From IMG/VR virus record IMGVR_UViG_2684622580_000009: a stretch of DNA of 10,930 nucleotides; one strand, given 5' to 3'. This DNA comes from a virus. Its lineage: Duplodnaviria; Heunggongvirae; Uroviricota; Caudoviricetes. Of the stretch, positions 317 through 7,654 are shown piece after piece. The position numbers and the translations under genes are program-made. Each line of letters starts with the position of its first letter. Position 1 is the first letter of the stretch. The notes beneath the pieces were generated by a model. The model was not told the DNA's origin. It saw only the letters and a program-made list of their open reading frames with translations, and made no database searches.

Positions 317-907
317 ATGTCTCGAATTTTTGCTTACTGTCGGATATCAACGCTGGATCAGACCATCGAAAATCAACGCCGGGAAATCGAAAGTGCAGGT
401 TTTAAAATCAAACCTCAGCAAATAATCGAAGAACACATTAGCGGCTCAGCAGCAACCAGTGAGCGTCCTGGTTTTAACCGGTTGCTTGCTCGCCTGAAAT
501 GTGGTGATCAATTGATTGTGACAAAACTGGATCGCCTTGGTTGTAATGCAATGGATATCAGGAAAACAGTGGAACAACTGACCGAAACAGGTATCAGAGT
601 GCATTGCTTAGCATTGGGGGGCATTGACCTGACCAGTCCAACAGGAAAAATGATGATGCACGTAATTTCAGCAGTCGCTGAATTTGAACGAGACCTTTTA
701 CTTGAACGCACTCATTCCGGGATAGTAAGAGCCCGCGGCGCAGGGAAACGTTTTGGTCGACCACCTGTGTTAAATGAAGAACAGAAACAGGTGGTATTCG
801 AACGAATTAAGTCAGGTGTAAGTATAAGTGCCATTGCCCGGGAATTCAAAACCTCGCGGCAAACCATTTTAAGAGCCAAAGCAAAACTTCAGACACCTGA
901 CATATAA
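317..907 (+). CDS. pin: Serine recombinase (resolvase/invertase family), PinQ/PinR-like, 196 aa
   Basis: N-terminal catalytic motif YCRISTLDQ with active-site Ser, C-terminal HTH ([20 protein letters not shown]); length and sequence match my recollection of the 196-aa PinQ/PinR proteins of E. coli lambdoid prophages. GAG-rich sequence lies shortly upstream of the ATG at 317. Confidence 0.85.
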
Positions 908-1004: not shown

Positions 1005-1580
1005 CTACGGCAGTGCTGGCCATTCAATATCCTGTGCAGTTGACGTATCAACACGGTTCAGCAACACCCGATACTTTTTCCAGGCTTCCAGCAATGAGGT
1101 TTCTTCCTCCGTTGCGATTTCCAGATCTACAGCATCCTGAAGTGGCGCAATATGCTCACTGGCTACCTGCATCAGGCTGTTTTTTGTTTCTTCCGCCTCT
1201 CGGATCCGGAACAGTTTTTCTGCTTCTGCATCTTTCACCCAGGCTGTGCCGTTCCACTTCTGAAACTCCCCTTCCGGCGATAACCAGGTAACATTTTCCG
1301 GTAACGGACCGAGTTCAGAAATAAATAACGCGTCCCCTGACGCTACGTCATAAACCGTTTTACCCCGATGGTCTTCAACGAGATGCCACGATGCCTTATC
1401 ACTGTTGAAAACAGCCACAAAGCCAGCAGGAATATCTGGTGGTGCAATATCGGTACTGTTTGCTGGCAGACCTGTATGAGGCGGAATATATGCGTCACCT
1501 TCACCAATAAATTCATTAGTTCCGGCCAGCAGATTATAAATTTTTATGGTCCGTGGTTGTTCACTCATTCTGAATGCCAT
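1005..1580 (-). CDS. tfa: Tail fibre assembly protein (lambda Tfa-like), 191 aa
   Basis: Near-identical over its length to recalled lambda Tfa ([54 protein letters not shown]...); sits immediately downstream of the stf-derived ORF with a start/stop overlap at 1580. Confidence 0.9.
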
Positions 1581-2626
1581 TATGCAAGCCTCACAATATA
1601 GTTAAATGCGATGTTTTTGACGGTGTTTTCCGCGTTACCAGCAGCGTTAACGGTGATGGTGTGTCCATGTGAACCAATCGCAACGGAGTGCGTGTGTGCA
1701 CCAATACCGACAGTATGTGCGTGTGCACCTGCAGATGCTGCTGTGCCGGACAGTGAGTGGCTATGGTTACCATCTGTACTGGTATTAGCTAACGCCCCCG
1801 TAGACATACCTACTGAGCCTTGTACACCCCAGGTATTTTGACCTGAGCTTGTATAACCATATTGATAAGTATCTTTAAAAACACTGGGGTTAAATCGACG
1901 GCCATCTCTATGGCTGTGATTACCAGCTGCATTCGTGCTGCCACTTAAACTATGGGTATGCGCACCAGTGTTATTCGTGGATTTAGTGCCGTAATCAAAC
2001 GACGATGTGGTTTTCGTCCCCAAATCCGTACTGGATGCGCTGGCGCTGTGGGTATGCGATTTAATGCCGTCCTGTTCCTGAGACAATACGGCCCGACCAC
2101 TGGCAGGTTTGCCCTTAATCGTCCAGCCACGCATATCAGGGATCACGCCTGACGGATAAGCGGCTGCAAGTTTCGGGTATGCAGATTTGTCAAAAGTCTG
2201 CCCCTGCATCAGGGCATAGCCAGACGGAACGGTATCTGATGGCCACGGGATTGGTGCGCCAGGCGGATAAAACTGCTCTGATGGCGTATAGAGTGAATAA
2301 ACTGTACCGTCCGTTAACCCTTCCGGCTTATTAGCAGAATATGCTGGTGACGTATGAATCGTCACGTTGGCATTACTGGTATAACCGACACGGGCAGACT
2401 TCACCACATTCACCTCGCGGATGTAGTCGCTGCCCATCGCATTCATGATGGCCCGCTGAAAGGGCAGTGTTTCCCAGCGCCCTTCCTGGTATGCGGATTC
2501 TTTCGGGAGATAGTAATTAGCATCCGCCCATTCAACGGCGGTCTGTGGCTCCGGCCTGAACAGTGAGCGAAGCCCGGCGCGGACAAAATGCCGTAGCCTG
2601 TTAACCTGACTGTTCGATATATTCAC
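1580..2626 (-). CDS. Chimeric ORF: terminase large subunit A N-terminus (about 83 codons) fused in frame to the C-terminal region of side tail fibre Stf (about 265 codons)
   Basis: Residues 1-83 ([83 protein letters not shown]) match lambda gpA N-terminus; the remainder ([11 protein letters not shown]...GAHTHS...[29 protein letters not shown]) matches the lambda Stf C-terminus with its His-rich GxHxH repeats. Start overlaps the Nu1 3' end as in lambda. Junction near 2376-2379. Confidence 0.85.
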
Positions 2627-3146
2627 TCAGCAACCCCGGTATCAGTTCATCCAGCGCGGCTGCTTTGTTCATGGCTTTGATGATATCCCGTTTCAGGAAA
2701 TCAACATGTCGGTTTTCCAGTTCCGGAAAACGCCGCTGCACCGACAGGGGGATCCCGTCGAGAATACTGGCAATTTCACCTGCGATCCGCGACAGCACGA
2801 AAGTACAGAATGCGGTTTCCACCACTTCAGCGGAGTCTCTGGCATTTTTCAGCTCCTGTGCGTCGGCCTGCGCACGCGTAAGTCGATGGCGTTCGTACTC
2901 AATAGTCCCTGGCTGGAGATCTGTCTCGCTGGCCTGCCGCAGTTCTTCAACTTCCCGGCGCAGCTTTTCGTTCTCAATTTCAGCATCCCTTTCGGCATAC
3001 CATTTTATGACGGCGGCAGAATCATAAAGCACCTCATTACCCTTGCCACCGCCTCGCAGAACGGGCATTCCCTGCTCCTGCCAGTTCTGAATGGTACGGA
3101 TACTCGCACCGAAAATATCAGCCAGCTGCTTTTTGTTGACTTCCAT
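2601..3146 (-). CDS. nu1: Terminase small subunit Nu1 (lambda Nu1-like, NohD/NohQ-type), 181 aa
   Basis: Essentially identical to recalled lambda Nu1 ([71 protein letters not shown]...EYIEQSG); N-terminal winged HTH; correct spacing (about 190 bp) from cosN. Confidence 0.92.
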
Positions 3147-3480
3147 TGTTCATTCCACGGACAAAAACAGAGAAAGGAAACGACAGAGGCCAAAAAGCTC
3201 GCTTTCAGCACCTGTCGTTTCCTTTCTTTTCAGAGGGTATTTTAAATAAAAACATTAAGTTATGACGAAGAAGAACGGAAACGCCTTAAACCGGAAAATT
3301 TTCATAAATAGCGAAAACCCGCGAGGTCGCCGCCCCGTAACCTGTCGGATCGCCGGAAAGGACCCGCAAAATGATAATAATTATCATCTACATGTCACAA
3401 CGTGCATCTACGCCATCAAACCACGTCAAATAATCAATTATGACGCAGGTATCGTATTAATTGATCTGCATCAACTTAAC
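3147..3480. other. cos: Lambda-type cos site: cosB (3147-3323), cosN 12-nt cohesive-end sequence (3324-3335), cosQ side (3336 to about 3480)
   Basis: 3324-3335 AGGTCGCCGCCC is the reverse complement of the lambda left cohesive end GGGCGGCGACCT. Flanking DNA matches recalled lambda left-end sequence (to 3147) and lambda right-end sequence (CGTAACCTGTCGGATC...ATTATGACGCAGGTATCGTATTAATTGATCTGC, 3336 to about 3470) with a few substitutions. Confidence 0.85.
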
Positions 3481-4088: not shown

Positions 4089-4382
4089 ATGAAAAAAATG
4101 TTGTTTTCTGCCGCTCTGGCAATGCTTATTACAGGATGTGCTCAACAGACGTTTACTGTTGGAAACAAACCGACAGCAGTAACACCAAAGGAAACCATCA
4201 CCCATCACTTCTTCGTTTCGGGAATTGGACAGGAGAAAACTGTTGATGCAGCCAAAATTTGTGGCGGCGCAGAAAATGTTGTTAAAACAGAAACCCAGCA
4301 AACATTCGTAAATGGATTGCTCGGTTTTATTACTTTAGGCATTTATACTCCGCTGGAAGCGCGTGTGTATTGCTCACAATAA
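4089..4382 (+). CDS. bor: Bor lipoprotein (serum-resistance, lysogenic-conversion cargo), 97 aa
   Basis: MKKMLFSAALAMLITGCAQQ signal peptide with lipobox LITGC; matches recalled lambda Bor. RBS AGGATAA upstream of the ATG at 4089. The ORF-track start at 4041 is probably an upstream in-frame extension. Confidence 0.9.
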   Translation: MKKMLFSAALAMLITGCAQQTFTVGNKPTAVTPKETITHHFFVSGIGQEKTVDAAKICGGAENVVKTETQQTFVNGLLGFITLGIYTPLEARVYCSQ

Positions 4383-4413: not shown

Positions 4414-4944
4414 CTATCTGCACTGCTCATTAATATACTTCTGGGTTCCTTCCAGTTGTTTTTGCATAGTGATCAGCCTCTCTCTGAGGGTGAAATAATC
4501 CCGTTCAGCGGTGTCTGCCAGTCGGGGGGAGGCTGCATTATCCACGCCGGAGGCGGTGGTGGCTTCACGCACTGACTGACAGACTGCTTTGATGTGCAAC
4601 CGACGACGACCAGCGGCAACATCATCACGCAGAGCATCATTTTCAGCTTTCGCATCAGCTAACTCCTTCGTGTATTTTGCATCGAGCGCAGCAACATCAC
4701 GCTGACGCATCTGCATGTCAGTAATTGCCGCGTTCGCCAGCTTCAGTTCTCTGGCATTTTTGTCGCGCTGGGCTTTGTAGGTAATGGCGTTATCACGGTA
4801 ATGATTAACAGCCCATGACAGGCCGACGATGATGCAGATAACCAGAGCGGAGATAATCGCGGTTATGCCCGTGACATACAGTCCATACACCAACAATATC
4901 TTTATATGGTATGTAGCTGACACCTTCCAGACCATCGTCACCAC
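4414..4944 (-). CDS. Rz: Rz-like i-spanin, 5' end replaced: lambda Rz homology runs from 4414 to about 4866; the ATG at 4944 is non-native
   Basis: From [14 protein letters not shown]... to ...KYINEQCR the product is near-identical to recalled lambda Rz from codon 5 onward. The first roughly 26 codons of this ORF are instead out-of-frame endolysin DNA. Native Rz start and RBS are absent. Confidence 0.8.
4473..4655 (-). CDS. Rz1: Rz1 o-spanin lipoprotein, 60 aa, embedded in the +1 frame of Rz
   Basis: [60 protein letters not shown]: lipobox VVGC and proline-rich segment, near-identical to recalled lambda Rz1. Confidence 0.85.
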
Positions 4945-5816: not shown

Positions 5817-6914
5817 ATGAAAAAATTAACAGTGGCAATTTCTGCTGTAGCTGCATCAGTACTGATGGCGATGTCTGCTCAGGCAGCTGAAATTTATAAT
5901 AAAGACAGTAACAAGCTGGATCTGTACGGGAAAGTTAATGCTAAGCACTACTTCTCCTCTAATGATGCAGATGATGGTGATACTACTTATGCCCGTCTTG
6001 GCTTCAAAGGTGAAACCCAAATCAACGATCAACTGACTGGTTTCGGTCAGTGGGAATATGAATTCAAAGGCAACCGCGCTGAATCTCAAGGTTCCTCCAA
6101 AGACAAAACCCGTCTTGCATTTGCAGGCCTGAAATTCGGTGACTACGGCTCAATCGATTACGGCCGTAACTACGGTGTAGCATACGACATCGGTGCGTGG
6201 ACTGACGTTCTGCCAGAATTCGGTGGCGATACCTGGACCCAAACAGATGTGTTCATGACTGGTCGCACCACTGGTGTTGCAACCTATCGTAACAACGACT
6301 TCTTTGGTCTGGTTGATGGTCTGAACTTTGCTGCTCAGTACCAAGGCAAAAACGATCGTAGCGATTTCGATAACTACACTGAAGGTAACGGTGATGGCTT
6401 CGGTTTCTCTGCTACCTATGAATACGAAGGATTCGGTATCGGTGCAACTTATGCGAAATCTGATCGTACCGACACTCAAGTTAATGCAGGGAAAGTTCTT
6501 CCTGAAGTATTTGCTTCCGGTAAAAATGCAGAAGTTTGGGCCGCAGGTCTGAAATATGACGCTAACAACATTTACCTGGCCACTACCTATTCTGAAACCC
6601 AGAATATGACTGTATTTGCTGATCACTTCGTTGCTAATAAAGCCCAAAACTTCGAAGCTGTTGCACAATATCAGTTCGATTTCGGTCTGCGTCCGTCCGT
6701 TGCTTACCTGCAATCTAAAGGTAAGGATCTTGGAGTATGGGGCGATCAGGACTTAGTCAAATATGTTGATGTAGGTGCAACCTATTACTTCAACAAAAAT
6801 ATGTCTACTTTCGTTGATTACAAAATCAACCTGCTTGACAAAAATGACTTCACTAAAGCACTCGGTGTAAGCACTGATGACATCGTTGCTGTAGGTCTGG
6901 TTTACCAGTTCTAA
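5817..6914 (+). CDS. nmpC: Outer-membrane general porin, NmpC/OmpD/Lc-type, intact, 365 aa precursor
   Basis: Signal peptide [23 protein letters not shown] then [17 protein letters not shown]..., C-terminal VGLVYQF beta-barrel terminal motif with terminal Phe; matches recalled NmpC. The ATG at 5817 is preferred to the upstream ATG at 5757 because it starts the signal peptide and has a purine-rich stretch upstream. It sits opposite to the late genes between Q and S, as in DLP12/PA-2. Confidence 0.9.
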
Positions 6915-7487: not shown

Positions 7488-7654
7488 TAACTTTCTCCAC
7501 AAAATCAGGCCAGCACACCAATCGCCAGTGCGCGATCGATAAAACGAAATATCAGCTCCAGCTGGGAGCCATACTTCTCTTCAAATGCCACGGTACCCGT
7601 TATTCTAAAGATCTTGCAGATGAAGGCACCCGCTGCTTTATCGATGCCGATAAT

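Follow-up and report, generated by a model that had tools for sequence, protein, structure and literature searches.

A cryptic lambdoid prophage of Escherichia coli carries, directly behind an intact Nu1 gene, an open reading frame (ORF) that starts as the large terminase subunit gpA of phage lambda and ends as the tip of a side tail fibre (Stf). This locus raises two questions: how did the two genes come to be joined in frame, and is the product a neutral scar or a retained function? An earlier note on this DNA had described the fusion as the mark of one clean deletion of the whole morphogenesis block and had left its function open. We addressed both questions by computational analysis of the window, by which we mean the whole stretch of DNA that was analysed (10,930 bp), and of related prophages. 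Our preferred reading, to which we give a probability of about 0.75, is that the ORF is a deletion scar of a decaying prophage, produced by stepwise short-homology deletions, and that the chimera is not selected as a protein.

A terminase-fibre chimera in a decaying DLP12-site prophage

Over its 10,930 bp the window is collinear with a cryptic prophage of the DLP12 type that lies next to tRNA-Arg in E. coli KSC9; the two differ by 8 mismatches. The element is a DLP12-site lambdoid prophage in decay, and its right arm is Qin-like. On the minus strand, read from right to left, it carries intD, early-gene remnants, quuD, a porin gene (on the opposite strand), essD and a truncated lysozyme gene, and further leftward rzpD, iss/bor, ylcI, cos, nohD (encoding Nu1), the chimeric ORF and tfa; a PinQ-like invertase gene on the plus strand follows. 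The features around the chimera, and the moron genes, are:

317-907, plus strand: serine invertase gene, 98% identical to PinQ; orphan
1005-1580, minus strand: tfa, tail-fibre assembly chaperone, 97% identical to TfaQ and 95% to lambda Tfa, with a Caudo_TAP match; directly downstream of the chimera
1580-2626, minus strand: chimeric ORF with a GTG start, 348 codons and no internal stop
1580-2380, minus strand: Stf-derived part, codons 83-348; equals residues 765-1035 of an intact 1035-aa prophage Stf
2381-2626, minus strand: gpA-derived part, GTG start and codons 1-82, equal to lambda gpA 1-82; bases 2381-2384 are common to stf
2601-3146, minus strand: nohD, an intact Nu1 homologue with 98.9% identity to lambda Nu1; 26 nt of its 3' end are shared with the chimera start
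3147-3335, minus strand: cos region, with the 12-base cohesive-end sequence of cosN at 3324-3335
4089-4382, plus strand: bor-like gene, annotated as serum-survival lipoprotein Iss
5817-6914, plus strand: nmpC-like porin gene, intact here; the K-12 copy is interrupted by IS5

Nucleotides 1-250 of the ORF matched lambda 711-960 at 98.8%. Residues 1-82 of lambda gpA are identical in the ORF while residue 83 is Thr here and Ser in gpA. Therefore the gpA part is 82 residues long; the earlier note had rightly recognized a gpA-like start but had given it 83. The remainder is the final 266 residues of a side tail fibre, in frame with the gpA part, and it consists of a 23-residue remnant of the preceding domain and a complete collar-needle-head tip. 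Pfam placed GpA_ATPase on residues 47-87 and then Collar and Phage_fiber, and PHROGs assigned residues 1-88 to the terminase large subunit and residues 80/90-348 to tail fiber. Residues 106-348 aligned end to end with the receptor-binding tip of T4 gp37 (2XGF, E=6e-86). These alignments and domain assignments, along with the lack of any stop, bear out an in-frame chimera of the gpA N-terminus and the Stf C-terminus behind an intact Nu1, and its late-operon orientation was also confirmed.

Measured against its two parents, the product is a partial copy of each. From gpA it has the N-terminal segment, whose coding sequence begins with GTG and shares 26 nt with the 3' end of Nu1, exactly as A does in lambda. 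The break at Tyr82 (KSARVGY/S) leaves the ATPase domain (PF05876) incomplete, and since the GpA_ATPase profile was matched only at positions 3-45 of 247, the ATPase is gone; the C-terminal nuclease/portal-binding region is lost as well, lambda 957-2636 being wholly absent. Like the T4 gp37 tip (2XGF) and the lambda Stf C-terminus, the chimera has the whole crystallised tip, the collar and all of the HxH metal-binding motifs (7/7), and a chaperone gene (tfa) lies next to it. Unlike gp37 and Stf, it has neither the long shaft nor the N-terminal tail-attachment domain, and its N-terminus is a terminase fragment. RefSeq calls it an ordinary "phage tail protein" though one quarter of it is terminase, which is mainly an annotation matter.

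The 190 bases from cosN to the start of Nu1, where cosB is located in lambda, are 99.5% identical to lambda 1-190. With cos beside an intact Nu1, cleavage by the terminase of a lambdoid helper phage would be possible. The N-terminal 55 residues of Nu1 matched the PADLOC model "mad1" (E=1e-11), probably reflecting only a shared helix-turn-helix. The sole Rfam match was IS009 (RF02111, 226.7 bits) at 1039-1237 on the minus strand, within the tfa coding sequence. The moron genes (nmpC-like porin and bor-like) are kept while the phage genes decay.

The junction of gpA and stf

The two parts meet at GTCGG-TTAT-ACCAG, without filler DNA:

2381-2384, minus strand: deletion junction, where gpA (lambda 953-956) and intact stf (nt 2289-2292) share TTAT as microhomology
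2367: private SNP, 14 nt from the junction, changing Ser to Asn relative to E14 and intact stf

The microhomology that the earlier note had anticipated at 2376-2379 does exist, about 5 nt away from that position. Alignment to lambda sized the deletion: the sequence from 957 to ~21,125, or ~20.2 kb, is missing, and with it, as had been claimed, the whole morphogenesis block. The intact A site (GGTTATtCC) and the stf site (GATTATaCC) match at 7/8 positions, which is in the top 0.06% of A x stf pairs. The strength of this microhomology was rejected as the sole cause of the junction, as ~3,400 A x stf pairs are equally good and the pair used in the sister prophage E14 is ordinary.

Substitutions tended to lie a few to 18 nt off deletion junctions, in the window (2367, 4861 and 7596) and in three other loci of our collection (L010, L016 and L031). 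Three of the four differences between the window and E14 outside the conversion patch described below adjoin junctions, although two of these are perhaps alignment-edge effects. At one junction, sequence differences on both sides set the L016 allele apart from that of P13-6.

A sister prophage with an out-of-frame junction

The prophage of strain E14 has the same gpA end as the window, GTCGGTTA, joined to 130 bp more of stf (beginning CTGGTGC). This version is out of frame, and the gpA frame stops 21 codons past the junction. The difference between the two prophages is a 130-bp gap flanked by TTA, and the two stf junction sites are copies of a short repeat, AAnGGGATTA. Outside the conversion patch there were 4 differences in 7.6 kb. 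E14 is the less decayed of the two: its repressor, cro and replication genes remain, its DUF968 gene is full-length and its rrrD is intact. The window lineage has undergone two further deletions:

4861-4865, inside the lysozyme gene: rrrD deletion of ~338 bp relative to E14, with short TA/GT homology and a base change beside the junction
7596-7600: early-region deletion junction, where a DUF968 gene remnant abuts a DUF2303 remnant

At the equivalent of 7596-7600, E14 holds ~6.5 kb of early genes (repressor, cro, replication, RusA, KilA-N). The rrrD deletion makes the lysis cassette defective in the window lineage, and the window prophage has neither tail genes nor a complete lysis cassette.

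Since E14 has the same gpA end, extra stf and less decay, the window junction is most likely secondary, having arisen by a 130-bp deletion across the TTA repeat; the order of events is the one that parsimony favors. As 130 is 3n+1, such a deletion would have restored the frame, and the reading frame of the window is most likely the chance result of a second, small microhomology deletion. We therefore envisage at least two steps, in which short-homology (illegitimate) deletions would have removed everything from codon 82 of A to the last quarter of stf. The older junction would have been of the E14 type (GTCGGTTA followed by CTGGTGC) and out of frame, and the later loss of 130 bp between TTA repeats would have put the Stf tip in the gpA frame, a 1-in-3 chance. 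The predicted product consists of gpA(1-82), the 23-residue domain remnant and the complete gp37-like tip; its translation, from the native gpA start, would require that Q-dependent late transcription extend this far. Hairpin-stimulated slippage was rejected as the cause of the 130-bp loss because folding across this segment was no better than that of shuffled sequences (z = -0.23 and +0.59).

Distribution of the junction and of other junction types

Among 5,426 complete E. coli genomes, 19 carry the exact window junction and 6 carry that of the E14 type. The exact 348-aa protein was found on 8 contigs of a large protein collection and a 1-residue variant on 480, all of them E. coli. The comparison across strains that the earlier note had called for thus found a junction that is rare, and variable at the same locus. 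Other junction types at the same or homologous loci were those of K-12 DLP12, K-12 Qin, RM10410, E24377A, P0011, P0012 and P0014; the DLP12 site by itself accommodates the window, E14, K-12, RM10410 and P0011 types. P0012 is a 293-aa chimera, seen in short-read assemblies only, in which the same gpA end is joined 165 bp further into stf; its background is ~0.5% diverged from the window. A preferential retention of Nu1 and stf/tfa was discounted because our DNA query demanded both.

Two junctions of K-12 are of the same type as that of the window, which combines a gpA start with a fibre module, after Nu1, in a defective prophage. StfQ (b1547) of the K-12 Qin prophage is likewise encoded behind a Nu1 gene (nohA), with the gpA GTG start, and runs in frame into an Stf C-terminal tip, and it is followed by tfaQ and then pinQ, to whose products those of the window tfa and pin genes are 97% and 98% identical. 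Unlike the window ORF, it has 3 gpA codons (VNI/TALT), a break at lambda 719, an altered Nu1 C-terminus and a different stf allele and position, while the window keeps 82 gpA codons and lies at the DLP12 site (tRNA-Arg). The aaaD/tfaD locus of K-12 DLP12 shares with the window its site, its backbone (intD, quuD, nmpC, essD, bor, ylcI, nohD) and the joining of a gpA N-terminal fragment to a fibre module by a short-homology deletion. There the gpA frame continues into Tfa (247 aa). It differs from the window in its break at lambda 1018 (codon 103), in its partner, which is tfa and not stf, and in being annotated as a pseudogene plus tfaD. The product names StfQ and TfaD carry no sign of gpA origin, so that the K-12 reference protein StfQ has the same hidden terminase origin as the window ORF.

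A reused break point in gene A

We used exact-pattern scans of viral contigs and metagenomes for a gene A 21-mer ending at lambda 955 or 956 and followed by a base other than the next one of A. In prophages at the Qin site, at the DLP12 site and elsewhere, the gpA end at 955/956 was followed by no fewer than 11 distinct partner sequences, a total that includes the E14, window and P0012 types. Those that need a label here are:

L014: the window-type junction itself
L015: a J-like gene
L016: lambda L, at 13434
L017: sequence upstream of K, 14246
L019/L020 and L028: two positions in a Qin-type stf
L029/L030: AT-rich sequence of no assigned identity
strain 65COLEC: a further partner of the 955/956 end

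Control scans of the same design at lambda 790, 830, 870, 910 and 985 gave no junctions, and the one match at these positions (L021) was a diverged but intact terminase gene. A second reused site lies at lambda 1018 (ending CCCTTAT), where the K-12 DLP12 junction (L006) and L022 (stf nt 2538) both break; the P0011 junction (L012) is at 1025, 7 nt from 1018. Both reused sites, 955/956 and 1018, end in TTAT, a sequence with 13 other occurrences in A. The 955/956 carriers comprise at least 3 Nu1/A' haplotypes.

In strains P13-6 and S3, the L016 and L019 types belong to a Qin prophage that occupies its usual place at ydfJ. K-12 Qin has the right end of S3 and a different left end (lambda 719). Between A' and tfaQ, the Qin of P13-6 (L031) retains 147 bp of L, 1,071 bp of J and 207 bp of stf, and it looks like an intermediate stage of erosion. 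That one gpA end is found beside many other partners, some of them remnants of L, K and J, argues for stepwise erosion.

What causes the reuse? TA or TAT microhomology was common to all of the junctions, and in S3 the match to the gpA terminus was 7/8 (GTCGGGTA versus GTCGGTTA). Such microhomology exceeds random expectation, yet many other pairs have as much. For a hairpin that would act as a replication "terminator" just ahead of the reused sites, the signal was weak: the intact A region folded only mildly better than its shuffles (z about -1.8 to -2.0), and among all A positions the energy of the upstream hairpin ranked in the top 21% at site 956 and in the top 7% at site 1018. A canonical AAG PAM defines a protospacer at lambda 954-985; CRISPR self-targeting was rejected as a repeat-spacer-repeat query found no matching spacer in 5,426 genomes, the best match (88%, in two pieces) covering repeats only. 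A terminase pseudo-cos site was also rejected, on a by-eye comparison in which only GGTTA was common to the cosN flank and its offset differed. Thus neither microhomology nor hairpins nor a CRISPR spacer explains the reuse of 955/956, and we found no description of a terminase-gene deletion hotspot in the literature searched.

We suggest tentatively, and with more doubt than belief, that 955/956 (codon 82, before Ser83 of KSARVGYS) is a specific reusable break point from which the morphogenesis genes are lost directionally. Two models could be envisaged. The retained left flank might determine a mutational hotspot, for example through a site-specific nick or a replication template switch. Alternatively, a single old junction, at which homology to other resident prophages stops, might trigger later deletions in which one side stays fixed, and gene conversion would then overwrite the arms. 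The Qin series with its fixed right end favors the old junction, and the number of backgrounds favors the hotspot. Either model makes the "clean deletion" one frame of a longer stepwise process.

Sequence exchange with other prophages

All 8 differences between the window and KSC9 are confined to one stretch of the distal stf part:

1694-1795: candidate conversion patch; 8 substitutions, of which 7 are synonymous, set it apart from the KSC9 and E14 loci, with which the surrounding sequence agrees

From its sequence, this patch looks like a gene conversion from another stf copy. Experiments have shown that lambda recombines with DLP12 near cos, nu1 and A and, within stf and tfa, with Qin and Rac, and that the nu1, R and Rz genes of DLP12 are functional in lambda (PMC3945230). 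Together with the patch, this recombination suggests that both arms of the scar are live recombination substrates, which continue to trade sequence with the stf and Nu1/A copies of other prophages.

One deletion, an independent break or stepwise erosion

The proposal of one clean deletion was not supported, given that the E14 junction is 130 bp off and that the same gpA end occurs with many other partners. A single ~20 kb deletion that joined codon 82/83 of A directly to distal stf would fit the lack of filler DNA at the junction and the high rank of its 7/8 match, but thousands of microhomology pairs are as good. It would also require two independent 20-kb deletions with exactly the same left end and with right ends no more than 130 bp apart, although only 4 differences in 7.6 kb separate the two lineages, and it leaves aside the relatives that share the gpA end and retain remnants of L, K and J. 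We therefore regard it as improbable. Somewhat less improbable, though still unlikely, is that the window junction arose independently of the E14 type, from a longer A or stf remnant, at a hotspot that the sequence at 955/956 determines. The number of partners and of Nu1/A' haplotypes, the different chromosomal sites and the five controls without junctions are consistent with such an origin, as is the SNP 14 nt to the right of the junction, which fits an error-prone polymerase extending a switched 3' end. On the other hand, the energy of the upstream hairpin is unexceptional, no CRISPR spacer was found among the genomes queried and the resemblance to cos is weak. Gene conversion of the arms, of which the window itself gives a direct example, could explain the haplotype differences, and the Qin series (K-12 versus S3) keeps its right end, as expected of deletions anchored at an existing junction. 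Stepwise loss through an E14-type intermediate is the reading that we prefer.

Scar or function

To judge the reading frame, we considered the A955/956 junction types that came from frame-agnostic DNA searches. Only one of eight (L015) was in frame; E14, 65COLEC, L016, L017, L019, L028 and L029 have the same gpA end and are out of frame. The E14, RM10410 and E24377A junctions, which were found by DNA similarity, were likewise out of frame. P0011, P0012 and P0014 were left out of this count because they came from a protein search, which by its design returns in-frame junctions. A proportion of one in eight does not exceed chance. There is therefore no enrichment for frame, and selection for in-frame fusions was rejected as an explanation.

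A function has been described for one comparable protein. StfE2, a chimeric Stf fragment of prophage e14, was reported by one laboratory to block phage adsorption (PMC12529663). Like the window ORF, it is a chimeric, truncated Stf of a cryptic prophage with a Pin invertase gene nearby. It differs in being formed by reversible PinQ/PinE inversion between 16-bp crossover sites, while the window chimera is a fixed deletion product. PinQ itself reportedly works in trans on the P segment of e14 (PMC12529663). At up to 3 mismatches, the whole window held no match to the e14 Pin crossover sequence, and a repeat scan gave no convincing inverted repeats flanking stf'/tfa. The locus thus does not have the inverted crossover sites of a Pin/Gin/Cin invertible segment, and an origin by Pin-mediated inversion or deletion was rejected.

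Several observations count against a scar. The Stf tip is structurally complete, tfa is intact right behind it and a genuine translation start has been inherited, so a folded product is possible. The window-type and P0012-type variants, which share a gpA end, both restore the frame, and, as that end is reused, chance alone does not govern the process. In lambda, the specificity of Nu1 binding resides in the N-terminal ~48 residues of gpA. It could be speculated from these points, from the intact Nu1 and cos and from the precedent of StfE2 that the protein is retained as a soluble tip that masks a receptor or as a Nu1-binding gpA fragment that hinders the terminase of a superinfecting lambdoid phage. 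We consider this very unlikely. The junction is rare and clonal, and sister lineages carry versions that are out of frame or stop at the junction. The absence of frame enrichment, of a Pin crossover site and of any PADLOC match to the chimera, which is thus outside the defence families of that collection, also speaks against it. Release has no route, given that the protein lacks a secretion signal and that lysozyme is encoded by a truncated gene, and the early region that drives Q has been deleted, which suggests that the chimera is not expressed. For aaaD, nohD or stfQ, the literature searched held nothing relevant to a function.

On the question that the earlier note had left open, the evidence thus favors a scar: the junction is rare and variable, in-frame fusions are not enriched, the lysozyme gene and early region are decayed and no defence match was obtained. 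The chimera is without ATPase, nuclease and tail-attachment domains and sits in a prophage without tail genes or a complete lysis cassette, which argues that it is not selected as a protein and is probably neutral.

Implications for prophage decay

The pattern of break-point reuse is a more useful result than the chimera itself. If the reuse of 955/956 and 1018 reflects a mechanism, cryptic prophages do not erode purely at random, and a defined sequence is available for experiments. Were 955/956 a specific break point, the decay of E. coli prophages would be partly channelled, with Nu1, gpA(1-82) and cos as a stable end product.
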